DNA from: Thermoanaerobaculia bacterium
Lineage (GTDB): Bacteria; Acidobacteriota; Thermoanaerobaculia; Multivoradales; UBA5704
Assembly (NCBI GenBank): GCA_044226625.1
Contig: JBGAGQ010000019.1
Location: 1 to 64,000, forward strand
DNA length: 64,000 nt
Reading direction: 5' to 3'
Shown: piece by piece, positions 17,406 through 32,636 of the stretch
How the letters are laid out: every line of letters begins with the position of its first letter
How positions within the stretch are numbered: position 1 is the stretch's first letter
Notes under the pieces: generated by a model
The model's input: the letters and a program-made list of their open reading frames with translations, nothing else
Told to the model about the DNA's origin: nothing
Database searches by the model: none
Position numbers and translations under genes: made by a program

Positions 17406-18491
17406 GTGAGCGAACGCGACGCCAGCGACCTTTTTCTCTCCCTCACCCCAGAGCGGGTGCTCGCCGCGGTCGAGGCGGCGGGCCACGAGACGACCGGTCT
17501 TTGCTACCCGCTCAACTCGTTCGAAAACCGGGTCTACGAGGTGGAGCTCGTCGATCGTTCTCGGGTGATCGCCAAGTTCTACCGCCCGGGGCGCTGGAGC
17601 GCGGAGCAGATCCTCGCCGAGCACCGGTTCCTTGACGATCTGGTGGAAGAGGAAATCCCGGTGGTCCCGATGCGCCGGTTCGGCGACGGCTCGACGCTCG
17701 GACGGATCGAGGGAATCTGGTACGCGCTCGCCGATCGGCGCGGCGGACGAGCTCCCGGCGAGCTGTCGGAAGAGCTGGCCGCCCGGCTCGGACGGCTGGT
17801 CGGTCGAATGCACAACGTCGGCGCGCGTCGGCCCGCCGCGCCTCGCCTCGCGATGACGGCGGACGCGTTCATCCGCGACGCCCTCGCTTGGCTCGCCGAG
17901 CACGGCACCCTGCCGGGACACCTCGCCCCGCGTTACCGGGCGGCCGCCGTCGGCATCGCCGAGGCGGTCGACGTGGCGCTCGAGGGGATGCCGACGCACC
18001 GCATCCACGGCGATCTCCATCTGGGAAACCTGCTGGAACGGGACGGCCGGCTCCACCTGATCGATTTCGACGACATGGTCGACGGGCCGGCGGCGCAAGA
18101 CCTGTGGCTCGCCCTGCCAGGGCGCGACGCCGAAACGCTGGAGCTACGCGAGGTGTTCCTCGACGGGTATCGCCAGTTCCGCGACTTCGACCGCGCCTGG
18201 CTCGCCGGCATCGAGCCGCTGCGCGGTTTGCGCCTCATCCATTACGCGACCTGGATCGCGCGCCGGTGGCATGATCCGGCGTTTCCCGCCGCCTGGCCTT
18301 GGTTCGGCACGGTCGAGTACTGGACCCGGGAAACCGAGGATCTGGAAGAGCAGCTCGCGGTGATCCGGGGCGAGATCGAAGCGGCGCGCCGCGAGGAGGA
18401 CAGAGCCGCGGGGCGCGAGGTTGCGGCGGTCCGAGACGACACCCCGGAGCTCACCAATAAGGACTTCTTTTGGGATTGGGAAGGGAACTAA
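17406..18491 (+). CDS. srkA: Stress-response Ser/Thr kinase, SrkA/RdoA (YihE) family
   Basis: LNSFENRVY, KFYRPGRWS, IHGDLHLGN, IDFDD, RWHDPAFP. Confidence 0.85.
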   Translation: MSERDASDLFLSLTPERVLAAVEAAGHETTGLCYPLNSFENRVYEVELVDRSRVIAKFYRPGRWSAEQILAEHRFLDDLVEEEIPVVPMRRFGDGSTLGRIEGIWYALADRRGGRAPGELSEELAARLGRLVGRMHNVGARRPAAPRLAMTADAFIRDALAWLAEHGTLPGHLAPRYRAAAVGIAEAVDVALEGMPTHRIHGDLHLGNLLERDGRLHLIDFDDMVDGPAAQDLWLALPGRDAETLELREVFLDGYRQFRDFDRAWLAGIEPLRGLRLIHYATWIARRWHDPAFPAAWPWFGTVEYWTRETEDLEEQLAVIRGEIEAARREEDRAAGREVAAVRDDTPELTNKDFFWDWEGN

Positions 18492-18613
18492 GTCGTCCCG
18501 GTTCGCGCGGGGCGCCTTTAGCACTCAGGCCCTTTTCGGGCCAAAAACGGGCCAAATCTGGTAGGTTCCCGCACCGTTTCGTGAAGGCGGGTGAAAACCT
18601 CAAAGGGGCGGGA

Positions 18614-19588
18614 ATGGAAATTTACGAGAACATCCTCGAAACGCTCGGCAACACGCCGTTGGTCAAGCTCGGGCGTTTCTCTCCGACCGGCGCGACGCTC
18701 GCGGCCAAGGTCGAGTCGTTCAATCCCGGGTCGAGCGTCAAGGACCGGATCGGCATCGCGATGATCGAGGCCGGCGAGAAGGCTGGGCTCTTGAAACCCG
18801 GCGGGACGATCGTCGAGCCCACCTCGGGCAACACCGGCGTGGGGCTCGCGATGGCGGCGAACCTCAAGGGCTACAAGCTGGTCTGTACCTGCGCGGACAA
18901 GATTCCAAAGGAGAAGGTGGCGTTGCTCGAGGCCTTCGGCGCCCGGGTGCTGACCTGCCCGACGAACGTCGAGGCGACCGATCCGCGCTCCTACTACAAG
19001 GTGGCCGAGCGGATTCGGGACGAAGAGGGGGCGTACCTTCCCTATCAGTATTACAACCAGGCGAACCCGGAAGCGCACTATCGGACCACCGGGCCGGAGA
19101 TCTGGCGCCAGACCGACGGCAAGATCACCCATTGGGTCGCGGGTGTGGGCACCGGCGGCACGATCAGCGGTGCGGCGAAGTTCCTGAAGGAGCAGAATCC
19201 GGAGATCCGGGTGATCGGGGTCGATCCGATCGGCAGCGTCTACGAGTACTACATCGAGCATCGCGAGCTGCCGCCGCAGGAGCAGATCCATCAGTACCTG
19301 ATCGACGGCATCGGCGAGGACTTCATGCCCTCGACCGTCTGGTGGGATTACATCGACGAGATCGTCAAGGTCGATGACAAGAGCGCCTACCGGGCGACCT
19401 GGGACCTCGCTCGAATGGAATCGATCTTCACCGGCTCGTCCGGCGGCGCCGCCGCCGAGGGCGCCCGGCGCGTCGCCCGGGATTTGCCGGAAGAAGCGCT
19501 CGTGGTCACGCTGTTCCCCGACGCGGGCGACCGCTACCTCTCGAAGTTCAATGAGGAGTGGATGCGCGACAAGGGCCTTTTGGACTGA
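18614..19588 (+). CDS. PLP-dependent cysteine synthase / cystathionine beta-synthase family
   Basis: GNTPLV, NPGSSVKDR, EPTSGNTG, GTGGT, GIGEDF; ATG at 18614. Confidence 0.9.
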   Translation: MEIYENILETLGNTPLVKLGRFSPTGATLAAKVESFNPGSSVKDRIGIAMIEAGEKAGLLKPGGTIVEPTSGNTGVGLAMAANLKGYKLVCTCADKIPKEKVALLEAFGARVLTCPTNVEATDPRSYYKVAERIRDEEGAYLPYQYYNQANPEAHYRTTGPEIWRQTDGKITHWVAGVGTGGTISGAAKFLKEQNPEIRVIGVDPIGSVYEYYIEHRELPPQEQIHQYLIDGIGEDFMPSTVWWDYIDEIVKVDDKSAYRATWDLARMESIFTGSSGGAAAEGARRVARDLPEEALVVTLFPDAGDRYLSKFNEEWMRDKGLLD

Positions 19589-19699: not shown

Positions 19700-22600
19700 A
19701 TGAAGACCGGACGATTCGCCATCGGCCTGTTTGCCGCCTGCTTTTTGTCATTTGTTTCGGGAGCGTTCGGGGTGGAAGGACCGCCCCAGAGCGCCATCAA
19801 ACCCACCGTTCGGGTGATGCAGGCGGTACGCACGGGGGTGACCCCGCGGGTTAGCGATCTCGTGCTCGAGATCCAGCACCCGAACCCGAAGGTCGTCCGG
19901 CAGGTCCCCTTCGTCGAGACGCCCGGCGAAGATGAGATGGGAGTGCGCAAACCGTTCGGCGATGCCACGCCGGACGAGGCGCTTCAGACCCACTACCCCA
20001 CGACCCGGGCGCTGACGCTCGGCGCCAATTTTCAGGGCGTGAGCCAGGCGACGCAGGGCGCGGTCTCCGGGTCGTTCGTCTCGCCGCCGGACACGGTGGG
20101 CGACGTCGGCCCCAACCACTACGTCCAGTGCGTGAACCTGGCCTGCCAAGTCTTCAATAAGAACGGCACGACCGCGAGCGCGGTGTTCACCTTGCGCGCG
20201 CTCTTCGTGGGCGCCGGCGGCACGGGCGATTGCTCGACGCTCAATGACGGCGATCCGATCGTCAACTACGATCCGCTCGCCGACCGCTGGGTGTTGAGCC
20301 AGTTCGCGGTCGGCAACCGCGCGGGCGCCGGCAAGGCCCACCAGTGCATGCTGGTCTCGCAGACGAACGATCCGACCGGCGCCTACTTTGCCTACGATCT
20401 GGTCGTTCCCGAGCCCTATTTCAACGACTATCCGAAAGTCGGAGTCTGGCCCGACGCCTATGTGATCACGGCGCCGCTTTTCGAAGGGCCGGTGTTCGGC
20501 CAGGGTATCTTCGCAATGAACCGGGCGAAGATGGTCGCCGGCGATCCGACCGCCGAAGCGGTCTTCCTCGATCTCACCGTCTCGCACCCCGGGCTCAGCC
20601 GCATCCTTCCCGCCGACGTGGACGGGGTGCCTCCGCCGGCCGGCGAGGGGAACGTCCTGATGGGTATCACGGCGAACGAGATGGGCGACCCGCAGGACGG
20701 CATCCGGATCCTCGAGCTCAAGCCGAACTTCACGAACCCGGCCGCGACGACCCTCACCGAGGTTTCGTTCTCGGGCGGCAGCCTCGCGGTCGCGAACTTC
20801 GACCCGACGTTCACCCAGGTCTCGGGCAACTGCGGCTTCGCCTTCACCAACCGCGACGACCTCGAGCAGCCCGCTCCGGCGAACTGCGGCATGCGTCTGG
20901 ACGCGCTTTCGGACCGGCCGCTCCACCGCTTGGCCTACCGGAACTTCGGCAGCTACGAGTCGTTCGTCTTCACCCACACGGTCGACGTCAACGCGACGGC
21001 CGCGAGCGCCACGAGCGGCCATCGCGCGGGCATCCGGTACTACGAGCTGCGCAGGAGCCTGCCGGGCGGCGCCTGGACGGTCCACGAGCAGGCGACCTTC
21101 TCGCCCGACGCCACCCATCGCTTCATGGGGAGCGCGGCGATCGACGGCAACGGCAATGTCGCGGTCGGCTATTCGGTCACCGACAGCGCGACCTTCCCGG
21201 GCGTCCGGGCGGCGGGTCGTCTAGCGACCGATCCCGCGGGCGGGCTGTTTCAGGGCGAGCTGACGCTCGCGGCGGGCGGCCGCTCGCAGACCAGCACCGG
21301 CTCTCGGTGGGGGGACTACAGCGCCCTTTCGGTCGATCCGGCAGACGAGTGCACCTTCTGGTTCACCCAGGAGTACTACGATCCGGTCGCGCCCCCTTCG
21401 TGTTCGGCCACGGCCTGCTGGACCACCCGAATCTCCAGCTTCACGATGCCGGGCTGCACCAACGCGGCTCCGGCGACCGGCATGCTGATGGGTACGGTGA
21501 CCGACGCCAACACCGCGACCGGCATCGTGGGAGCCCTGGTCCAGACCGCCAACGGCTACTCGGCGGTAACGGGCGTTGGGGGCGCCTATGTGATCAAGGT
21601 GCCGGCAGGGACCTATTCGGCCACGGCTTCGAAGCCCACCTACGGGCCGGAAAGCGCGACGGGCCTCGTCGTCACCGCCGGCGGGTCGACGGTGCAGGAT
21701 TTTGCCCTTTCGACCGGCATCCTGAGCGGCACCGTGACGGACTCCGCGACCACCAACGCCTTGGCGGGCGCCCTGGTCGAGCTTTCCAACGGCGCCTCCC
21801 AGCTCACCGACATGTCGGGCAACTACTCCTTCGCGGTGGAGCCGGGTAGCTACACGGTCAACTTCTCGCGGTCGGGTTACTTCCCGGAGAGCCAGAGCGG
21901 AGCGGTGGTCGGCACCTCGGGGGTGACCGACGTCGACGCGGCGCTCGATCCGACCCCGGGCCTCACCGTATCCTCGACCACCGCCGACGACTCGACCGGC
22001 AATGTCAACGGCATCGTCGACTACAACGAGTGCTTCTTCCTGAACGTCACCTTGACCAACGGCGGAACGGTCGCCGCGACGGGGATCAGCGCCGTGCTCA
22101 CCACGACGGAGCCCCAGGTGCAGATTCTCCAGGGCGCCTCGGCCTATCCGGACATCGCCGGCGGTGGTGGCATGGGAACCAACACCACGCAGTTCAAGGT
22201 GCGCACCACGCCAACCTATCCGGCGGGCAAGCCGATGAATCTGGTGCTCAACCTGACGACCGCGCAGGGACCGCTTTCGATTCCGTTCTCGATCGTCACG
22301 GCGGGCGGTGTTCCGACCTCCATGGCGGCGACCGGGCCGGTTGCGATCCCGGACAACGACGGCATCGGCGCCTCGATCACGATCCCGGTGGCCGGGTTCA
22401 GCCAGGTTCTGTCCAAGGTGGCGGTCCGCGTACGCATTACCCATACGTTCGACGGCGATCTGGTCCTCCGACTGCGCGGCCCGGACAACACGGTCGTCCT
22501 CCTTTCCTACCAGTTGGGCGCCAACGGCGCGGGCTTCGGCACCGACTGCCCGGCCGATGGCAACGACACGACCTTCGACGACGAGGCGGCGACCTCGATC

Positions 22601-23506
22601 CTCACCGCCACCGCGCCGTTCGCCGGGTCGTTCCGCCCCCAGAATCCGCTCTCGGCCTTCGCGGGCAAATCCGGTGCGCAGGTTAACGGTAACTGGACCT
22701 TCGAGGCGGCCGATCTCGGCGCGGTCGACATCGGCAACATCGAATGCGTCACCCTGTTGTTGAACGGCGCCGCCGCCGGCCCGGGCTGTAACGCCCTGCC
22801 TTCGGCGATTCCGGGAGGACCGTATTCGGCGAACGAAGGCGGCACGACGGCTTTGTCCGGGAGCGGATCGGACCTCGACGGTCAGCCGGTTACCTTCACC
22901 TGGGACCTCGACGGAGACGCGATCTTCGGAGAAACCGGGGCCGGCGCCACCCGCGGTGATGAGACCGGTCCTTCGCCGACCTTCTCGGCGGCCGGGCTCG
23001 ACGGCCCGTCGGCCTTCATGGTCACGCTTCGGACGTCCGACGGCATCGGCTCGACCGACGCGCCGGTGTCGATCGCGATCCAGAACGTCAACCCGACGGT
23101 CGTGGCGGGCGGGCCGTACACCGTTTCGCTCAACGGCACGGTCGGCTTGCTCGCGGTCGGCAGCGACGCGGGCGGCTCCGGCGATCCGCTCACCTACAGC
23201 TGGGACCTCGACGGGGACGCGATCTTCGGCGAGACCGGCGGTGCGGCGACCCGAGGTGATGAGGTCGGCGCCAATCCGACCTTCAACGCGACCGGGCTTG
23301 CCGCGGGTGCGGTGGTGCCGGTGAGCGTCCAGGTGGCCGACGGCGACGGTGGTACCGCGACAGCCAACGGTACGGTGACGGTGCGCGGCGGGGCGGTGAT
23401 CGACATCCCGACGCTGTCGGGAGTCGGCGTCGCACTCCTGGCGATCGCCCTCGCGGCCGTCGCCGTGATGCTCGCCCGCAGGCGCCGGAGCTCGCTGATC
23501 GGCTGA
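19700..23506 (+). CDS. Large secreted/surface protein: carboxypeptidase-regulatory-like repeats, proprotein-convertase P domain, two PKD-like repeats, IPTL-CTERM anchor
   Basis: Signal peptide; PPD..GDVGPNH, RWGDYS; ITHTFDGDL...GNWTF P-domain; two WDLDGD repeats; C-terminal IPTLSGVG-TM-RRRR. Confidence 0.8.
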   Translation: MKTGRFAIGLFAACFLSFVSGAFGVEGPPQSAIKPTVRVMQAVRTGVTPRVSDLVLEIQHPNPKVVRQVPFVETPGEDEMGVRKPFGDATPDEALQTHYPTTRALTLGANFQGVSQATQGAVSGSFVSPPDTVGDVGPNHYVQCVNLACQVFNKNGTTASAVFTLRALFVGAGGTGDCSTLNDGDPIVNYDPLADRWVLSQFAVGNRAGAGKAHQCMLVSQTNDPTGAYFAYDLVVPEPYFNDYPKVGVWPDAYVITAPLFEGPVFGQGIFAMNRAKMVAGDPTAEAVFLDLTVSHPGLSRILPADVDGVPPPAGEGNVLMGITANEMGDPQDGIRILELKPNFTNPAATTLTEVSFSGGSLAVANFDPTFTQVSGNCGFAFTNRDDLEQPAPANCGMRLDALSDRPLHRLAYRNFGSYESFVFTHTVDVNATAASATSGHRAGIRYYELRRSLPGGAWTVHEQATFSPDATHRFMGSAAIDGNGNVAVGYSVTDSATFPGVRAAGRLATDPAGGLFQGELTLAAGGRSQTSTGSRWGDYSALSVDPADECTFWFTQEYYDPVAPPSCSATACWTTRISSFTMPGCTNAAPATGMLMGTVTDANTATGIVGALVQTANGYSAVTGVGGAYVIKVPAGTYSATASKPTYGPESATGLVVTAGGSTVQDFALSTGILSGTVTDSATTNALAGALVELSNGASQLTDMSGNYSFAVEPGSYTVNFSRSGYFPESQSGAVVGTSGVTDVDAALDPTPGLTVSSTTADDSTGNVNGIVDYNECFFLNVTLTNGGTVAATGISAVLTTTEPQVQILQGASAYPDIAGGGGMGTNTTQFKVRTTPTYPAGKPMNLVLNLTTAQGPLSIPFSIVTAGGVPTSMAATGPVAIPDNDGIGASITIPVAGFSQVLSKVAVRVRITHTFDGDLVLRLRGPDNTVVLLSYQLGANGAGFGTDCPADGNDTTFDDEAATSILTATAPFAGSFRPQNPLSAFAGKSGAQVNGNWTFEAADLGAVDIGNIECVTLLLNGAAAGPGCNALPSAIPGGPYSANEGGTTALSGSGSDLDGQPVTFTWDLDGDAIFGETGAGATRGDETGPSPTFSAAGLDGPSAFMVTLRTSDGIGSTDAPVSIAIQNVNPTVVAGGPYTVSLNGTVGLLAVGSDAGGSGDPLTYSWDLDGDAIFGETGGAATRGDEVGANPTFNATGLAAGAVVPVSVQVADGDGGTATANGTVTVRGGAVIDIPTLSGVGVALLAIALAAVAVMLARRRRSSLIG
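22901..23300 (+). repeat. Intragenic duplicated PKD-like module with a 300-bp period
   Basis: TGGGACCTCGACGG.GACGCGATCTTCGG.GA.ACCGG at 22901 and 23201; WDLDGDAIFGETG..ATRGDE.G..PTF.A.GL twice. Confidence 0.85.
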
Positions 23507-23539
23507 GCGGGCTAGAAGGACAGCCGTAGAAGCTCGAAG

Positions 23540-23580
23540 CCCCCGGGCGGACCAGCGGTCCACCCGGGGGTTTTCCTTTT
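23540..23580 (+). terminator. Rho-independent terminator
   Basis: CCCCCGGGCGGACC-agc-GGTCCACCCGGGGG followed by TTTTCCTTTT; lies between convergent genes. Confidence 0.8.
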
Positions 23581-23591
23581 TATGGAGGCTC

Positions 23592-24995
23592 CTAGTTCCG
23601 TACGAACAGGGCTTCGCGGACGAGGGCGCGGCGCATTTCGTCCAAGCCGCCGAACCCGAGCTCGCGCGCCGCGCGTTCGAGCGCGTCCGGCCCGTCGGGG
23701 ACGGGACGTCCGAGGCGCGCTTCGAAATACCACCGCCAAAGCTCGTCCAGCGACAGACCGGTGTCACGAAGCTCGGGACGGGATAGGCCTTTGGCGGCGA
23801 GCGCCGCCGTCTTCGCCTCGGCGCGTGCGGCGAGTGGGGCGTAGGCATCTCGGAGTCGGAGGTCGTCGCGCAACGCCCCCTCGATCAGCGGCTCGATCCG
23901 CGCCAGCGCCCGCTCGATCCGTGCCTCGTCCACAGCGATCCGGGTGAGCCCCGGAACGTCCAGGCGCTGTTCGAAGAGGAACGCGGCGAGGGCGTCGTCG
24001 TCGGCGAGACCACGCCGCTGCCGGAATCGGTCCACCGCCCGCTCGCGCGCCGGGGCGTCGAGGTGCAGACCGCCGTAATCGGCGAGAACGAGCCCGAGCA
24101 CGCGGGTCAAAGCGGCGGCGCGGGCCTGAGCGTAGCGGGATTCGGCCGCGGGAGGCGACTCGCCGTTCGCCTCTGCGAAAGCGCCGAGCCGCAGCTCGTC
24201 CAAGGGATCGACCGCGGCCTCTTCGCCCGCCGCGGTCGCCGCGCGGGCCTCGGCGGCGACCCTCCCGGACTCCCACGCCTCCGTGCGCTGAAAGGTGAAC
24301 GTCGCGACGAACGGCCCCGGATGCTCGGCTCGGGTCTCGACCATCCGGCGAAGCATGGCGAGCGCGTCGAGCTTCTTCTGATCGATCCGGCCGCCGGGCA
24401 GCCAGGCTTCGAGCGCGTTGAGCTCGGTCGCCGACAGGTCGGCGCGGCGCGCTCTTTCGAGGATCAGCGGCAGACCGCGCTCCGGATAGCGCAACGCCTT
24501 GGCGAGGACGATCAGCTCGCTTCGAGTCGTTTCGCCGATCACGCCGGCCGCCCCGGCCGCGGCGAACGTCGCCCGCAGGTTCACCATCGCTTCCGAGCCC
24601 TTCGCGTAGCCGGTCGAGCCAGGACCGTGAAACACGGTGACCTCGTCGTCGTCCGAGAGCTCGCCGGCCTGAAACGACCGGTAGATCTCGCCCACACCCC
24701 GCATGCCGAAAGGCTCGCACTCGACGGCGCGTAACGCGCCGAGACTCGCGGCGCCGAAGACGTGGATTCCCTGCTCGAGCGCCCAGAGGATCTCCTTGTG
24801 CCAGACCGAGGCGAGCCGGTCGAAATAGCCATCGACGATCCCGAGTCCCCAGGGCCCCTCCCGAGCGGCCAGGTAGAGATCCCCTTGCGCCACCGGAGGC
24901 AACCAGGTGACGGGGGAGAGCTCAGGGACTTCCCGCCGCCCTTCCTCCTCGGAAAGCGTCGGGCCGGAAAAGACGACGATTCGCCCCGCGCTCAT
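23592..24995 (-). CDS. tfuA: TfuA-like protein with an extended C-terminal helical domain
   Basis: VVFSGPTL, PPVAQGDL, GIVDGYF, VWHKEIL, GAASLGALRAVE, GMRGVG, DDDEV, SEAMVNLR, DQKKLDA. Confidence 0.92.
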   Translation of the reverse strand: MSAGRIVVFSGPTLSEEEGRREVPELSPVTWLPPVAQGDLYLAAREGPWGLGIVDGYFDRLASVWHKEILWALEQGIHVFGAASLGALRAVECEPFGMRGVGEIYRSFQAGELSDDDEVTVFHGPGSTGYAKGSEAMVNLRATFAAAGAAGVIGETTRSELIVLAKALRYPERGLPLILERARRADLSATELNALEAWLPGGRIDQKKLDALAMLRRMVETRAEHPGPFVATFTFQRTEAWESGRVAAEARAATAAGEEAAVDPLDELRLGAFAEANGESPPAAESRYAQARAAALTRVLGLVLADYGGLHLDAPARERAVDRFRQRRGLADDDALAAFLFEQRLDVPGLTRIAVDEARIERALARIEPLIEGALRDDLRLRDAYAPLAARAEAKTAALAAKGLSRPELRDTGLSLDELWRWYFEARLGRPVPDGPDALERAARELGFGGLDEMRRALVREALFVRN

Positions 24996-26236
24996 CGCCC
25001 GGCCGCCTCGGCGAGCGCCGCCTGGGCTCGGGACCCAGGAATCCAGCCGGGGATCTCGCGTGAGGTCTCGAGGCCGGGAGCGATCACCCGGTGCACCGGC
25101 AGGCCGAGAACCGGATGGGTGAGGTCGACGTCGATGACCTCCGAGAATCCGGCCGACGCGAGGCGCGAGAGGATCGAGGAGAGGTCCTCGTCGAAGGTGT
25201 CCGCGGCGAAGTCCGGCGCGGCCCGAAAGTCGCCTCTCGGTCGAGAGTCGAGAACGCCGCGCCGGAGACTCTCAATCGCGTCGGGATCCCGCCACGACTC
25301 GTACCTCTTGAGCGGCATGTCGTCGCGCGCGCCGGCGATCGTCGTGAGCCGGCTCTGGGCCGCCTCGGTCAACGCGCGGAGGAGCGCCACCCCTCGGCTC
25401 GGATGGCAGCCCATACCGCCTCCCGCGCCGCGAACCTGGAAAGGATCTGCCTCGGCGTCGAGCACGAGGGACCGAAAGGCGGCGACGCCGACGTCCGAGG
25501 TGATGTCCCAGACGGCGACGGCGACGCCCGCCTGGGCATAGAGATCGAGCACCTCGCGGCAGAGGGGATCGTCGACCGTCGCGAGGTCAACCCGCGAAGG
25601 CCCGTCCCAGTCGTCGCCATGGCGCAGCTCGGAGAGCGTATTGGCGTCCCGCTCGATCACCTCGCACAGGCCATGGCCGATCGCCTCCAGCTCGTGGTTG
25701 CCGGAGGCGAGGCCGTTCGAAGAAAACGCGAAGCAGCCGCTGCCCGGCGGCATCGGCCGCGTCGTGTCCATGTGGACCAGCTCGTACGGAACCCACACGG
25801 GCTCCCGAGTGGGCAGGTCGATCCCATCGATCCAGAGCATCTTGAGCTCCGGATGAAAGGGGGTCGCGGCGCAGCGCGGCAAGCCGTCGAGCCGGGCCAC
25901 CCGATGGCTGAAGCGGAGTTGGTTGTACGTCGCGAGGCGAACCGGCCGCTCGATTCTCTCGGCGTGCCAGAGCTCGATCGCTTCCATCAGACCGGAGGCC
26001 CGGGCCGATTCGAGATCGAGGCCCTTGCCTTGCGACACCGCGAGCGAGCGGGAGTTCGGGCGGCAGACCATGACGACCGGCAGCCCGATCACGTCGAGGC
26101 CGGTGACGTTCGCCACCCGGGTGATGCCGAAGATGGGAGCGAGGCGGCTCGCCCGCTCGACCGTTTCGCGCGGATCAGTCGACCGGTGCGTTCCCCGCCG
26201 GTAGGTCTTGAGGATCGAGCCGGGCTCCCCGTTCAC
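24992..26236 (-). CDS. ycaO: YcaO-family ATP-dependent enzyme, TfuA-associated (thioamide-forming type)
   Basis: GITRVANVTGLD, SQGKG...MEAIE, SSNGLASG, EVIERD, TEAAQSR, VIAPGLE; no PxPxP C-terminus; ATGA overlap with tfuA. Confidence 0.92.
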   Translation of the reverse strand: MNGEPGSILKTYRRGTHRSTDPRETVERASRLAPIFGITRVANVTGLDVIGLPVVMVCRPNSRSLAVSQGKGLDLESARASGLMEAIELWHAERIERPVRLATYNQLRFSHRVARLDGLPRCAATPFHPELKMLWIDGIDLPTREPVWVPYELVHMDTTRPMPPGSGCFAFSSNGLASGNHELEAIGHGLCEVIERDANTLSELRHGDDWDGPSRVDLATVDDPLCREVLDLYAQAGVAVAVWDITSDVGVAAFRSLVLDAEADPFQVRGAGGGMGCHPSRGVALLRALTEAAQSRLTTIAGARDDMPLKRYESWRDPDAIESLRRGVLDSRPRGDFRAAPDFAADTFDEDLSSILSRLASAGFSEVIDVDLTHPVLGLPVHRVIAPGLETSREIPGWIPGSRAQAALAEAAGR

Positions 26237-26289
26237 GGAGTCCCGAGTTTAACGGATCGTCCGACTTCGACCGCGGTCCGAACCGAGTC

Positions 26290-26505
26290 CTAGGGGAGCT
26301 TGGCCATGATGATCGCGGCCACCGCGCCGCCGCAGCCGAGCTTGTTCGCGGTGTTCGGATCGACAGGAGCGACCGGGTTGTCGCCGGCCGCCGCCTTCTG
26401 CTGGTCGACGAACGCGTCGTTCTTGTCGAGCGAAGTGATCGTGCCGGCGGAGTCGACGCAGTAGAGCGCCCCAGAGTCGCTGATAAGGATCACACAGTTG
26501 GCCAT
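26290..26505 (-). CDS. Small protein B (71 aa), candidate YcaO/TfuA substrate or RiPP precursor
   Basis: GGGAGGAG RBS before ATG 26505; paralogous to 26584-26850; directly upstream of ycaO. Confidence 0.7.
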   Translation of the reverse strand: MANCVILISDSGALYCVDSAGTITSLDKNDAFVDQQKAAAGDNPVAPVDPNTANKLGCGGAVAAIIMAKLP

Positions 26506-26583
26506 CTTTGGACTCCTCCCAAAAAGCAAAACGAAGACGAGCGCCGCCCGGACCCTTTGGATCCCAACGGCGCCCGAGAGGGC

Positions 26584-26850
26584 TCAATACTTCGACGAAC
26601 CGCCGCCGTCTCCGATCAGGGAGAGGTTGACGAACGTTCCCATGATGATCGCCGCGACCTCGCCGCTGCCGGCCGATTTCTGCTCGACCGCGGGATCGAG
26701 CTCCGCGATCAGAACCCCTTCGGCGGCCTTCTGCCTCGCGGCGACGGCGGTCGGATCGTCCGGCTTGAGCTCCACGGACTGACTGGGGTCGCCCAACGTG
26801 ACGTGGTAGACCTTTCCGGTTTCGCTGACGATGACGAGATTGCTGGCCAT
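26584..26850 (-). CDS. Small protein A (88 aa), candidate YcaO/TfuA substrate or RiPP precursor
   Basis: GGAGGAG RBS; shares the N-terminal V.IS..G..Y.V, QKAA.G, DP and VAAIIM motifs with protein B. Confidence 0.7.
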   Translation of the reverse strand: MASNLVIVSETGKVYHVTLGDPSQSVELKPDDPTAVAARQKAAEGVLIAELDPAVEQKSAGSGEVAAIIMGTFVNLSLIGDGGGSSKY

Positions 26851-26907
26851 CTCTCAAACTCCTCCGAGTCGCATAGCGCTGGAAATCTTGGTGATAGTGC
26901 ACCTACC

Positions 26908-26965
26908 ACGGTAACACAGGCGCGAAGGGGCCTCAAGCTCAATGCTATCAATGCTTTCAACGCCA
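26908..26965 (-). promoter_or_regulatory. Putative sigma70 promoter of the small-protein-ycaO-tfuA operon with adjacent 9-bp direct repeats
   Basis: Minus strand TTGAGG-17-TACCGT with an extended TG; plus-strand repeats TCAATGCTA TCAATGCTT TCAACGCCA at 26939-26965. Confidence 0.5.
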
Positions 26966-27012
26966 TTTTGCTATGGAGGCATGACCCTCCTCTCGCGCGA
27001 GGAGGACCGCCT

Positions 27013-30000
27013 TCAAGCCCGCATTTCGAGCCGCGCCAAGCCGCTTTCGGCGCGCGCTGCGAGCCCTGGCGCCCCTTGGGCGCGGGCGACCTCGAGCGCC
27101 TCGCGGTAGAGCCATCCGGCCCGTTGCGGCTCGCTCTGGGCCAGCTCCGCCTCGAGGCAGAGGAGGTGGGCGCGCCAGAAGAAACGCGGCCCCAAAATCT
27201 CGGCGAGCGCTCGCGCCTCCGAGAACGCCTGGAGCGCCTCGTCTCGCCTCCCGAGGTGGACGTATGCGTCGATCAGGAGCGAAAGGAAATAGATCTCCGA
27301 CAGGCGGGCGCCGGAGATCCGGTACGCCGCGAGACCGTCGAGCATGCGGCGCATCCCTTCTTCCGCGTGCTCGGGCTCGCCGCTCTTGACCAGGGCCCAA
27401 CCGAGCTGAAGATTGCCGAGCCCGACCGAGTTGGTAAATCCCTTCTCGGTCGCGAGAGCGAGTAGCTCCCCGGCGAGCACCGCGACCTGCGCCGGCTCAT
27501 TGCACAGCTGGTGGACCCAGCCGGCCGAGGAGAGCGCGTCGGCGAGGCTGAACGGGTGGCCGATGACGTCGCGCGCCACCCGGATCGCCGAAGTGCAACG
27601 TTCGACCGCCTCCTCCGGCCGTCCGAGGTGCCAGAGGGCGACGCCCGAGATCGCAAGCGTGGTCACGGCGACGTCGAGCCCGGTGATGAAGGTCGGCGTG
27701 CGATCGCGGGCAGGGGAGTCGAGCGCAAGGCCGGCTTCGAACTCGGCGAGCGCCGCGGCGAACTCGCCCAGGAACAGCTGGGGCATGCCGGCGCAGAGGT
27801 GCGACTCGAATTGCAGCGCGCGGTCTTTGCGCCCGAGCGCGATCTCGTTCATCCGCCGGGCGAACTCGAGCGCCGTCTCGAAGGAACAGCGGACGAGATG
27901 GAAGGCCCAGAGGCCGCGCAGGACCCAGAACAACTGGGGCGCGTCGCCGACCTGGGTGCAGAGCACTCGGGCGCGGTCATAGTTCGCCTCGACCTCCGGC
28001 GCGGCGTAGCCGCGGGTGGCGATCAGCGCCGGTCCGAGCATCGTGCGCAGGTCCAGCTCCGAACGGTCGCGTGCCGGGCCGAGAGCGACCGCCTCGCACA
28101 GTCGGAGGGCCCGCTCGAGGTGAGCGATCGCCTCGAGGTTCGCGGAACGCTCGGCCGCCTTGCGTCCGGCCGAAAGCCAATAGGTGATCGCGCGTTCGGC
28201 GAGCCCCGCCTCCGTCCAATGTTGGGCGACCAGCTCGGGGCGGGTTTCGGCGACGTCCGGGAAACGCTCTTCGATCGCCCGCGCGATGCGCGAGTGGTAC
28301 TGCTGCCGCGTGCTCTTGAGCAGCGACTCGTATGCGGCGTCCTGGATCAACGCGTGGCGGAAGGAATAGGTGATCGCGCCGGCCACGCCACGCTTGTAGA
28401 GGATCTCGGCGTCGACCAATTGATCGAGCCCGCGCCGCAGCTCGGCGTCCGGCTGGCTCGAAACCGCGCGCATCATGTCGAAGCTGAACTCCCGGCCGAT
28501 CGCCGCGGCGAGCTGGACCAGCTCGCGCACCGACGCCAGCCGGTCGAGGCGGGCCATCAGCGAATCGTGGAGCGTCGCCGGAATCGCGAGCGGCGGCAGC
28601 GGCCCGTCGAGCTCGTACCGGCCGTCGATCGGGTGGAGGAGACCCGACTCGATGACCATCCGTGTGAGCTCCTCGACGAACAGGGGCACGCCGTCGGTCT
28701 TCGCGATCAGTTGGCGCAACACCTCCTGCGGCAGCGGGCGCCCCTCGGTCCTCTCGAGGATCAGCTCCTCGATCTCCTCGTCACTCAGCCGATCGAGCGT
28801 GATCTGGCTCGCGTAGGCGCGACCCGCCCAGGGGAGCGCCATGTCGGGCCGCAGCGTGAGCAGAATCAACAGGCGGGTGGTCGGCGCTTGGCTCACCAGC
28901 ATGCCGAGGAGCTCGAGCGTCGACGGGTCGACCCAATGGAGGTCCTCGAGGAAGAAGATGACCGGACCCTTGTCGGCCATCGCGAGGACGAGCGAGACGA
29001 GGGTCTCGAGCGTCCTCTCCTTCTGCCGTTGCGGGGACAGGTCGAGCGGCGGAAAGCGATCGGCGATCGGCAGGCCGATCATCGAGGCGATCAGCGGCAC
29101 CTCTTCGCCGACCAGCCCGAACGGCCGAAGCCCCTTCTCCAGACGGACGATCGAGGCGTCGATGGTCTCGTCGCCCCGGATCCCGAACAGGCCCTGGAGG
29201 AGCTCGACGATCGGCGCGAGCGCGCTATGGGTCTGGAACGGCGAGCAACGGCCATCGAGCCAGGAGCTGATTCGGCCGTTCGCCTGATCGCGGAGGTGCT
29301 GCACCAGCCGGGATTTGCCGATACCCGCCTCGCCCACGACGGCGACCACCTGCCCGCGCCCCTCGCAGGCGCGGTCCAGGCAGCGGGCGAGCGCCTCGGC
29401 GTCCCCGCGGCGTCCCACGAGCGGCCGGAGTCCCTTGTCGCGCTCGGCCTCGAACGGGCTCACGAATCCGCGCCAAGCGAGCACCCGGAAGACCTCGATC
29501 GGCTTGGCGATCCCCTTGAGCTCGTGCGGTCCGAGCGACTGGCAGTCGAACAGGCCGCGCAACAGAGGGTAGGTCTTGCCGCTGATCGCCACCGTCCCCG
29601 GCTCGGCGATCGCCTGGATTCGCGCGGCGATGTTGGAGACCTGCCCGACGACCAGGGTCTCGCGGGTGTCGACCATCGCCGTCGCGATCCCGCGCCCGGT
29701 GTGGATGCCCACCCTCACTTGGAGCCCGACGCCGTGCCGGGCTTCGACCTGCGCGCTCAACGCGGCGACCGCCGGGATGATGTCGAGGCCCGCACGCGCC
29801 GCCCGCTGGGGATCCTGCTCGAGCGCGGCGGGGTAGCCGAAATAGGCCATCAGCCCATCGCCGAGCAGCTGGGCGACATGGCCGCCGTACCGCTCGACCG
29901 CCTCGGCGCAGGCCCGCTGATAGCTCTGCACCACGTCGCGCAACTCTTCCGGATCGAGCCGGTCGGCGAGCGCCACCGAGCCCACCAGGTCGCAGAACAG

Positions 30001-30282
30001 GACGGTGACGGTCCGGAGCTGCTCGGTGAGGACGGAGAACGTACCGGTGATCGCTTCGACGGTCGTGGTGGGGATCGACGGGGGCGGAGGTGTCGGCGTC
30101 ACGGGGACGACCACGGCCGGCTCCCCCAGCAGGGCCCCGCCGCAATACCCGCAGAAGCGCAACGCGTACCCCGCGGGCAACTCCGCCTTGCAGTTGGGGC
30201 AGGGGAAGGGGAGCGGCTCGCGGCAATGTCCGCAGAAGCGGAAGCCGGGGGGGTTGTCGTTATGGCAGCTGGAACACTTCAT
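27013..30282 (-). CDS. Double zinc ribbon + class III nucleotide cyclase + STAND/AAA ATPase + TPR protein
   Basis: Four CxxC pairs; TVLFCDLVGS, LGDG, VRVGIHTG, NIAARIQ; Walker A GEAGIGKS; LEDLHWVD; FRHALIQDAAY. Confidence 0.92.
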   Translation of the reverse strand: MKCSSCHNDNPPGFRFCGHCREPLPFPCPNCKAELPAGYALRFCGYCGGALLGEPAVVVPVTPTPPPPSIPTTTVEAITGTFSVLTEQLRTVTVLFCDLVGSVALADRLDPEELRDVVQSYQRACAEAVERYGGHVAQLLGDGLMAYFGYPAALEQDPQRAARAGLDIIPAVAALSAQVEARHGVGLQVRVGIHTGRGIATAMVDTRETLVVGQVSNIAARIQAIAEPGTVAISGKTYPLLRGLFDCQSLGPHELKGIAKPIEVFRVLAWRGFVSPFEAERDKGLRPLVGRRGDAEALARCLDRACEGRGQVVAVVGEAGIGKSRLVQHLRDQANGRISSWLDGRCSPFQTHSALAPIVELLQGLFGIRGDETIDASIVRLEKGLRPFGLVGEEVPLIASMIGLPIADRFPPLDLSPQRQKERTLETLVSLVLAMADKGPVIFFLEDLHWVDPSTLELLGMLVSQAPTTRLLILLTLRPDMALPWAGRAYASQITLDRLSDEEIEELILERTEGRPLPQEVLRQLIAKTDGVPLFVEELTRMVIESGLLHPIDGRYELDGPLPPLAIPATLHDSLMARLDRLASVRELVQLAAAIGREFSFDMMRAVSSQPDAELRRGLDQLVDAEILYKRGVAGAITYSFRHALIQDAAYESLLKSTRQQYHSRIARAIEERFPDVAETRPELVAQHWTEAGLAERAITYWLSAGRKAAERSANLEAIAHLERALRLCEAVALGPARDRSELDLRTMLGPALIATRGYAAPEVEANYDRARVLCTQVGDAPQLFWVLRGLWAFHLVRCSFETALEFARRMNEIALGRKDRALQFESHLCAGMPQLFLGEFAAALAEFEAGLALDSPARDRTPTFITGLDVAVTTLAISGVALWHLGRPEEAVERCTSAIRVARDVIGHPFSLADALSSAGWVHQLCNEPAQVAVLAGELLALATEKGFTNSVGLGNLQLGWALVKSGEPEHAEEGMRRMLDGLAAYRISGARLSEIYFLSLLIDAYVHLGRRDEALQAFSEARALAEILGPRFFWRAHLLCLEAELAQSEPQRAGWLYREALEVARAQGAPGLAARAESGLARLEMRA

Positions 30283-30338: not shown

Positions 30339-32636
<2,298 letters not shown>

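Follow-up and report, generated by a model that had tools for sequence, protein, structure and literature searches.

Introduction

What do the two small genes directly upstream of a YcaO/TfuA enzyme pair in an acidobacterial genome encode, and are their products the substrates on which these two enzymes act? The question is raised by a 64,000-nt stretch of DNA from a Thermoanaerobaculia bacterium (GenBank assembly GCA_044226625.1, contig JBGAGQ010000019.1, positions 1–64,000 of the forward strand; hereafter, the window). A preliminary description of this stretch had noted two paralogous precursor-like proteins (here A and B) with a shared Ala/Val/Ile/Met-rich block, and had proposed for them an N-terminal beta-hairpin leader followed by a modified, thioamitide-like C-terminal core. 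Here we ask whether A and B are real genes, what accompanies them in the window and in related genomes, which of their parts are conserved, and which modification, if any, they are likely to carry.

Results

Reality and paralogy of genes A and B

Both open reading frames are found on the minus strand as originally placed, the residues quoted for them are correct on re-reading of the translations, and the strong GGAGGAG ribosome-binding sites claimed for them are indeed present at a short distance from the two ATG codons (Table 1). A longer, TTG-started version of B, listed up to position 26529, is unnecessary. Sites of the GGAGG type precede seven of the eight homologue ORFs read, the exception being the third copy of locus L006. 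The claimed paralogy also stands, A and B being 34% identical over 74 columns (BLASTP, E 3e-8). Comparison with orthologues yielded dN/dS values of 0.18–0.43 for A (5 pairs) and 0.40–0.64 for B (4 pairs), all nine of them below 1. A and B are real paralogous genes under purifying selection. Spurious ORFs are abundant in high-GC DNA, and a 217-aa frame on the same strand (26249–26902), a usual by-product of DNA of ~65–70% G+C, does overlap both A and B; nevertheless, a reading of A and B themselves as chance open frames, against which speak their protein-level conservation and dN/dS values, their ribosome-binding sites and the similar small size of 10 of 18 homologue matches among 1.84 billion representatives, has a negligible probability and, on the sequence evidence, is refuted.

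Table 1. Features of the A/B locus in the window, in order of position
Feature	Position	Strand	Size	Description and basis
Long TfuA	23592–24995	minus	467 aa	PF07812, E 5.7e-42, residues 55–173; predicted parts (AlphaFold2): TfuA domain 1–225, disordered linker 237–282, all-helical C-terminal domain 284–466
YcaO	24992–26236	minus	414 aa	Thioamide-forming type; PF02624, E 2e-81
Gene B	26290–26505	minus	71 aa	ATG start; B-type paralogue, C-terminal end ...GCGGAVAAIIMAKLP
RBS of B	26513–26519	minus		GGAGGAG, 7 nt before ATG; read from sequence
GC-rich hairpin	26538–26576	minus		Just past the A stop, then a U-rich tract (26520–26537); MFE -40.7 kcal/mol, z -2.62
Gene A	26584–26850	minus	88 aa	ATG start; A-type precursor-like protein: N-terminal hairpin (predicted), variable stretch, IMGTFVNL, Gly-rich tail ending KY; ORF list and translation
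Intergenic region before A	26851–27012	minus	162 nt	Holds a block conserved in 7/7 loci (alignment A7)
RBS of A	26859–26865	minus		GGAGGAG, 8 nt before ATG; read from sequence
Zinc-ribbon/adenylate-cyclase/AAA_16/TPR protein	27013–30282	minus	1089 aa	Pfam; upstream neighbour
Ser/Thr kinase with TPR	30339–32636	minus	765 aa	Pfam

Enzymes and neighbourhood of the operon

Genes A and B immediately precede YcaO, and all four genes, TfuA included, share one direction, the start of TfuA overlapping the stop of YcaO by 4 nt. The YcaO, which is the sole one in this 6.6-Mb genome, has as its best NCBIfam model TIGR03266, the YcaO of McrA-glycine thioamidation (219.8 bits vs. a cut-off of 365), and the best model for TfuA is the TfuA partner of the same modification (181.5 bits vs. 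a cut-off of 235.2); since both cut-offs are missed, the two proteins are of the same enzyme type and not the McrA enzymes themselves. The closest solved chain to the YcaO is M. jannaschii MJ1094 (6pe3; E 1.7e-34, nearly full length), as compared with E values of 1e-12 to 1e-14 only for the azoline-forming TruD, MusD and LynD. The AlphaFold2 model of TfuA (mean pLDDT 81.5) superimposes residues 4–225 on M. acetivorans TfuA 6xp8 (Z 29.5, rmsd 1.7 A over 216 residues, 32% identity), a comparison that effectively covered the N-terminal domain (residues 1–227).

The C-terminal part of TfuA (residues 231–467) has no Pfam match; a search of a 5.8-billion-protein collection returned 33 matches including the query, 31 of them with PF07812 (the sources named being Thermoanaerobaculia and Kofleriaceae), and a look-up in an atlas, which gave other long TfuA proteins at scores of 0.75, agrees with this search. 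As judged by these comparisons, the C-terminal domain is a recurrent, unnamed extension on a subset of TfuA proteins. Pfam searches, including one with TfuA residues 231–467, found no RRE or other known leader-binding domain. Four ThiS-family genes are present elsewhere in the genome. A prediction of the complex of YcaO, TfuA and A with alignments, run without controls, gave a score of 0.01, which counts neither for nor against such a complex.

On the upstream side, the multidomain cyclase-AAA-TPR protein is probably a regulator, and the Ser/Thr kinase next to it may be its functional partner. The 3' limit of the operon is set by a convergent gene for a 1268-aa secreted protein (19700–23506). 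A scan of 20 ORFs between 12176 and 35481 (overlapping alternative frames among them) further included an APH-family protein (17406–18491, on the other strand and beyond the 3.8-kb convergent gene), a PALP enzyme, an MFS transporter, a lectin-fold protein and a carbamoyltransferase. The operon itself contains no gene for a protease, an exporter or immunity, and neither a protease nor an exporter is found among the 20 neighbouring ORFs scanned.

A genus-restricted peptide family with conserved gene order

A word-indexed search with A yielded 10 non-self relatives (66–81% identity), and the sole match of B was B itself; B-type orthologues are present in four related loci (L005, L016, L017 and L018) and as P0016. 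A profile of the family, searched against 1.84 billion representatives, gave 18 matches at E <= 1e-3, of which 10 are proteins of 71–91 aa and the other 8 (396–1366 aa) show 3–6 repeated partial matches to profile positions 14–38. Distant members include P0018/P0033, P0020, P0023 and P0024, and some long TfuAs are 36–43% identical (e.g., P0054, from Kofleriaceae); the longest contigs of P0033 and of the long TfuA P0041 have the same length (17367), a hint that one contig may encode both. Genome and metagenome scans yielded 4 and 3 loci, respectively, the metagenome scan (alignment A4) comprising three close loci only. By whole-genome searches of a class sample, the peptide family is present in 4 of 401 genomes, all from one genus (the present genome and three of its three relatives), and was not found in the other 397; a close YcaO (78–80% identical) occurs in the same four genomes. 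The phylum sample adds only weak family matches inside long frames, at loci without YcaO or TfuA. Because of this setting, the matches to the profile seen in G123 and G289 (E 2.8e-4 to 4e-3, within open frames of 253–368 aa) were put down to a beta-hairpin segment that happens to resemble the family. Relatives are labelled as Thermoanaerobaculia and Holophagales bacteria.

Neither A nor B matches any Pfam family, ThiS (PF02597) included, and NCBIfam gave A two matches no better than chance (E 0.068 and 0.12) and B no match at all. In these two collections there is likewise no match of A or B to a double-glycine leader family, and both fail to match the Nif11/NHLP leader models. A true Nif11-like pair in the YcaO locus of another genome (L029) looks, by eye, quite different from A and B. 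A search of solved structures (PDB) with the family profile had a best E of 0.012 (SlpX), and in the literature we found no description of the peptide family or of the strings GTFVNL, IMGTFV and IIMGTF in such a context.

Every locus contains 2–3 diverged tandem peptide copies: A-type together with B-type copies in the window, L005, L016/L017 and L018; an A-type copy together with a different short type in L003; and three peptide types each in L006 and G266. The preliminary description had staked its proposal on homologues lying near ycaO/tfuA genes, and every relative with a readable flank does adjoin the same genes. Thus, a YcaO 78–81% identical to that of the window lies downstream of the peptides in all seven distinct readable loci (window, L003, L005, L006, G266, L016/L017 and L018), and a long TfuA (66–71% identical) comes next in all six that reach that far; L004, which ends at the peptide gene, is left out of both counts. 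The cyclase-AAA-TPR gene precedes the peptides in all loci. It is directly upstream and 84–88% identical in L003, L004, L006, L016 and L017, and its C-terminal part only falls within the available DNA in L005 (84%), L018 (80% over 157 residues) and L008/G266 (86%). Since all close loci come from one genus, their synteny amounts to one observation, not seven, and is weak as independent evidence.

A more distant locus (G755), from another family of the same order, has the gene order kinase-cyclase-AAA-TPR fusion, 126-aa small ORF, YcaO and long TfuA. The kinase domain, which is encoded by a separate gene in the window, is fused here to the cyclase-AAA-TPR protein; this fusion is 37% identical to the window regulator over 655 residues (E 2e-112), and the YcaO and TfuA are 49–51% and 35% identical, respectively, to those of the window. 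The small ORF contains a similar N-terminal hairpin segment (IIHADDGHFYHFT), the hydrophobic motif F-I-V-T-C-H-F-F-N at the place equivalent to the conserved C-terminal motif, and a Gly-rich tail. Its match to the family profile reaches 6.8 bits only (E 7e-4 in a one-sequence search); by these similarities, it is probably a distant relative of A and B.

Conservation pattern and predicted structure of the peptides

Column entropy, averaged over 25 family members, delineates two conserved islands: residues 1–19 (M-A-x-x-L-I-I-V-S-E-S-G-K-V-Y-x-V), with a mean of 1.04 bit, and residues 69–76 (I-M-G-T-F-V-N-L), with a mean of 0.53 bit. The most variable part (residues 59–68; 2.17 bit) is a Gly-containing linker with a short hydrophobic stretch, which reads 'VAA' in A and B, and the remaining parts of the protein have entropies between these extremes. 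Of the block G-x-G-x-V-A-A-I-I-M singled out earlier, its sharing by A and B is borne out by BLASTP and the alignment, but as the conserved block of the family it does not hold: I-M is kept, and 'VAA' belongs to the most variable part. The dipeptide I-M is common across the 25 members, G-T-F-V-N-L being added in A-type copies (with Thr72 nearly invariant), and B-type copies end soon past I-M (..IIMAKLP, ..VIMVKL). A Cys is found in B-type copies 9–10 residues before I-M, and the B of the window has no Ser, Thr or Cys beyond I-I-M. The C-terminal ends are ...SSKY in A and ...AKLP in B.

An AlphaFold2 model of A (25-row alignment) contains strands at residues 4–8, 14–18 and 24–28 and a helix at 33–43 (pLDDT 71–79), that is, a moderately confident beta-beta-beta-alpha N-terminus, and residues 61–88 are modelled as disordered (pLDDT <50). 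The originally claimed N-terminal hairpin thus reappears in the prediction, extended by a third strand and a helix, ahead of a disordered C-terminus. The latter part nonetheless holds the best-conserved motif, which suggests conservation for interaction rather than for fold. In the model, a conserved unstructured C-terminus behind a small structured N-terminus fits what is expected of a substrate tail and a recognition part. Foldseek with this low-confidence model against the PDB gave a best E of 0.5 and no fold match.

Expression signals

The hairpin between A and B is listed as terminator-like, and 3 of 200 shuffles folded as well. GC-rich stems occur at the same place in four of the five other loci folded (L003, L005, L016 and L018, not L006), where they are individually weak (z -0.6 to -1.9). 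Peptide operons commonly have hairpins downstream of their structural gene, and the one observed here is possibly an attenuator or an mRNA-stabilising structure; an attenuating hairpin after A would yield more A than enzyme transcript. The conserved block before A contains a palindrome (AATGC-N8-GCATT) and TTGAGC/TTGAGG ... TACCGT, and the intergenic region as a whole is, from its sequence, probably a promoter and operator of the operon's own. A scan for sigma-70 consensus promoters gave no promoter-like site, and an Rfam search of 23000–27600 gave no match. One 234-nt contig of a metatranscriptome library matches 26208–26441 exactly, which is a weak hint of transcription, as such libraries can hold DNA; it is on conservation and on this contig that the translation and transcription of A and B rest. 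Sequencing runs beyond the likely source sample contributed small shares only, and the parts left uncovered carry no meaning.

Discussion

Candidate substrates of backbone thioamidation

Taken together, these data make it probable that A and B are made by the ribosome as substrates for backbone thioamidation by the adjacent YcaO and TfuA. We favor this interpretation because of (i) the co-directional operon with its overlapping enzyme genes and the only YcaO of the genome; (ii) the thioamide-forming type of both enzymes (MJ1094, NCBIfam, 6xp8); (iii) the strict co-occurrence of the peptides with YcaO/TfuA and their genus-restricted distribution; (iv) the multiple diverged copies per locus, as is common for precursor genes; (v) the two conserved islands flanking the most variable stretch, with the C-terminal motif placed in a tail predicted to be disordered; (vi) the precedents of the thiovarsolin minimal gene set and of the Met thioamide in uL16; and (vii) the four genes for ThiS-family sulfur carriers.

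In the mechanism that we propose, the conserved N-terminal hairpin region (residues 1–30) would serve as the recognition part, and the flexible C-terminal region as the part to be modified. YcaO would activate a backbone carbonyl with ATP, sulfide would be delivered by TfuA, probably out of a ThiS-type thiocarboxylate, and at least one amide of the variable hydrophobic stretch, of the invariant Ile-Met or of their immediate surroundings would become a thioamide. The best-guess site would be the carbonyl of Met70 before Gly71, possibly with neighbouring residues. It is a reasonable guess, and only a guess, taken from E. coli uL16, where Met82 is reported to be thioamidated by YcaO in the context R-M-G-K (PMC13063428), that is, on a Met before a Gly, as in the invariant I-M-G of A-type peptides. 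As the operon contains no protease or exporter, the product may be freed by housekeeping proteases (as for thiovarsolins) or be kept as a modified mini-protein. Its expression would probably be controlled by the cyclase-AAA-TPR protein encoded upstream.

Several observations were counted against A and B as substrates. At 71–92 aa, and with an N-terminus predicted to fold, the proteins would be unusually long RiPP precursors; conservation runs through the whole of A (63–81%) at about the level of the enzymes (YcaO 78–81%), and leader and core are not sharply set apart; the operon contains neither protease, exporter and immunity genes nor an RRE that could be found; and the close loci represent one genus, with just 6.8 bits for the distant ORF of G755.

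Alternative interpretations

The same features may be read in a way that keeps thioamidation and drops the cleavage: the end product would be an uncleaved thioamidated mini-protein with a tail used intracellularly, perhaps in signalling through the kinase and the cyclase-AAA-TPR protein. The predicted folding of the N-terminus, the conservation of the full length under purifying selection, the absence of a protease or exporter from the operon and the retention of the cyclase-AAA-TPR neighbour even in the distant G755 are all in line with such protein-type thioamidation, for which two YcaO precedents have been reported, the thioglycine of McrA (methanogen YcaO/TfuA) and uL16 (PMC13063428). The methanogen pair is also the closest to the enzymes of the window. 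However, McrA and uL16 are large housekeeping substrates encoded elsewhere, whereas A and B belong to a small, genus-restricted, multi-copy family encoded in the operon. Moreover, 2–3 diverged copies with a hypervariable stretch next to the conserved motif are typical of secreted peptides that diversify, not of housekeeping proteins; the B-type copies are fast-evolving (pN 0.32–0.37); and the absence of a protease gene is, per the thiovarsolin case, no argument. We therefore regard the mini-protein as an unlikely end product. A comparably low likelihood is assigned to its more specific version, in which folded mini-proteins, recognised via the helical C-terminal domain of TfuA and thioamidated at Ile-Met-Gly in the disordered tail, would act intracellularly, wired to the kinase and cyclase-AAA-TPR (STAND-type) genes; if true, McrA and uL16 would be joined by a third example of thioamidation in a protein backbone, and by the first in which the substrates form a dedicated family that diversifies.

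It appears improbable that A and B are not substrates at all and serve as accessory or regulatory proteins (e.g., ligands of the STAND-like regulator or sulfur carriers), with YcaO and TfuA modifying something encoded elsewhere. Such a role would be in keeping with the regulator being the best-conserved neighbour (84–88%) and with the Gly-rich tails of A-type copies. Yet the C-terminal Gly-Gly of ThiS-like carriers is absent (A ends in K-Y and B in L-P), no Pfam or NCBIfam family is matched, the best Foldseek E of 0.5 was obtained with a low-confidence model, and multiple diverged copies would be odd for a carrier. A resemblance between I-M-G-T-F-V-N-L of A and I-T-G-T-F-S-V-L, located in the regulator just before its cyclase domain, would also fit a ligand; this shared-motif idea was dropped, as the G755 regulator has, by eye, no counterpart of the motif of its own small ORF. 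The regulators within the genus are too alike to inform on it.

Other YcaO-dependent modifications of A and B as substrates, with or without thioamides, are highly improbable in our estimate, even though azolines, amidines and thioamides are reported to arise by one YcaO mechanism (PMC13063428). An azoline could form at the nearly invariant Thr72 of A-type copies or at the Cys that precedes I-M in B-type copies. Against this (and against an amidine) speak the partner, which is TfuA and not an E1-like or RRE cyclodehydratase partner, the far closer relation of the YcaO to MJ1094 than to TruD or LynD, and the lack of Ser, Thr and Cys after I-I-M in the B of the window.

Comparison with known systems

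Returning to A and B as thioamidated precursors, their nearest analogue in architecture appears to be the minimal thiovarsolin system, not the thioamitides. In Streptomyces varsoviensis, varA, varY and varT alone are reported to suffice for thiovarsolin B, a linear, thioamidated product (PMC6511847). The two systems would thus share a minimal unit of precursor, YcaO and TfuA for which, going by that report, no dedicated protease is needed. VarA is described as a repeat precursor with the product derived from APR (GPR in the first repeat) (PMC6511847), whereas A and B have no repeats, have a predicted folded N-terminus, are encoded by 2–3 separate genes and show no similarity to annotated families (Pfam, NCBIfam). 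The locus also differs in its long TfuA, its cyclase-AAA-TPR neighbour and its phylum.

The core of thioviridamide is rich in Val, Ala and Met, and A and B share such a composition in the putative target stretch. The thioamitide likeness proposed earlier turned out to be compositional only: the precursors are unrelated, and a C-terminal Cys is absent from A, B and every member of the family alignment (A3), so that no Avi(Me)Cys ring could be formed. None of the thioamitide tailoring genes looked for (a TsaC/TsaD-type phosphotransferase and HopA1-like dehydratase pair, TsaE/F, a methyltransferase and an oxygenase) adjoins the operon, and the 20 ORFs between 12176 and 35481 offer only the APH-family protein on the other strand beyond the convergent gene. 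Thioamitides (thioviridamide, thiostreptamide S4) are described as being defined by this ring together with a set of tailoring enzymes, YcaO/TfuA (TsaH/TsaI) thioamidating aliphatic residues iteratively as the first step (PMC8153245).

Both the chemistry of these enzymes and clusters of this general kind are well known, and genome mining has yielded such clusters by the hundreds: a global survey (Malit et al., 2021) reported 613 TfuA gene-cluster families and 797 predicted precursor families, some of them in Acidobacteria (PMC8120280), and the A/B locus belongs to this landscape. A family with the features of A and B is not found in the text of that survey; its supplementary precursor tables, a possible prior listing, lie outside this comparison. 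Two features of the present locus are noteworthy: the candidate precursors, which are long, partly structured (as predicted) and present in several copies, and the long TfuA, accompanied by a conserved STAND-type gene nearby.

Significance

Characterised thioamidated ribosomal products are few, and none from Acidobacteriota was found in the literature searched. The four-gene unit (two substrates, if our interpretation holds, YcaO and TfuA) is compact enough for expression in E. coli, and the locus could reveal which amides of a long substrate are selected by a YcaO of the TfuA type, as well as the role of the C-terminal domain of TfuA. The conserved link to the cyclase-AAA-TPR protein, which holds in two loci with YcaOs only 49–51% identical, hints at regulated production. 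Overall, the locus is a well-founded lead for natural products and introduces no new principle. Its two small genes most likely supply the starting peptides for a sulfur-modified product, as yet undescribed, of an uncultured bacterium from soil or sludge.

Signalling genes upstream of the precursor-like genes

In the distant locus of G755, a genome from another family of the same order, a Ser/Thr kinase domain and the cyclase-AAA-TPR architecture are fused in one protein (L036:1191-5276), and this fusion suggests that the kinase-TPR gene of the window and the cyclase-AAA-TPR regulator gene just downstream of it, which are separate genes here, work together. Just ahead of its cyclase domain, at residues about 79-86, the window regulator carries the motif I-T-G-T-F-S-V-L, similar to I-M-G-T-F-V-N-L of the A/B peptide family, and the orthologous regulator of the close locus L003 also has this motif (as ITGTFTV). 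Because no analogous regulator/peptide motif pairing is found in the G755 locus, the likeness is probably due to chance.

Flanking genes

The large secreted protein encoded convergently to the operon is kept at 80-84% identity in the close loci L003 and L016-L018, and Pfam gives no match to its N-terminal 670 residues. The APH-family phosphotransferase and PALP enzyme genes lie 5 kb away from the operon. In thioamitide clusters, according to PMC8153245, a phosphotransferase is used together with a HopA1-like partner; among the window ORFs scanned, no such partner was detected.

Features of the window surrounding or overlapping the A and B genes
Feature	Positions	Strand	Details
APH-family phosphotransferase	17406-18491	+	
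PALP enzyme	18470-19588	+	
Secreted protein, 1268 aa	19700-23506	+	CarboxypepD_reg, P_proprotein and PKD domains; IPTL-CTERM sorting signal
Arg-rich open frame, 217 aa	26249-26902	-	different reading frame; spans A and B
Cyclase-AAA-TPR regulator	27013-30282	-	
Kinase-TPR protein	30339-32636		

Other YcaO loci of the class and weak profile matches

Another locus of the class, L029 (G622:C94), contains two tandem precursor genes upstream of a tandem pair of YcaO genes and a gene for a long TfuA. Its precursor pair looks Nif11-like by eye: in each member a Thr-rich core follows a leader with a Gly-Gly end (..TTTTTTTTVTASASAAAAT). The locus is a different peptide cluster, thioamide or azoline, within the same class as the window. 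Directly upstream of YcaO and a short TfuA, a conserved protein of ~200 aa is observed in L030, L031, L033 and L035, and a 404-aa form of it in L032; in these five further YcaO-TfuA loci from the class it stands at the place expected for a precursor. This protein (searched as the L031 copy) has no Pfam match and may serve as a substrate protein or as a partner.

Weak matches (E 2.8e-4 to 4e-3) to the peptide profile, in its N-terminal hairpin part, also come from 253-368-aa proteins of genomes G289 and G123 (L009, L010, L013, L015) through the segment ..ITD(K/H)G(T/S)VYSF(T/V)LDD... By eye, these look like putative conjugation proteins of the VirB9/TrbG type, and neither YcaO nor TfuA is found near them.

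Overlapping open frame

The Arg-rich frame across A and B is of the kind that GC-rich DNA commonly yields outside the true reading frame, and an annotation pipeline could pick it in place of the real A and B genes.
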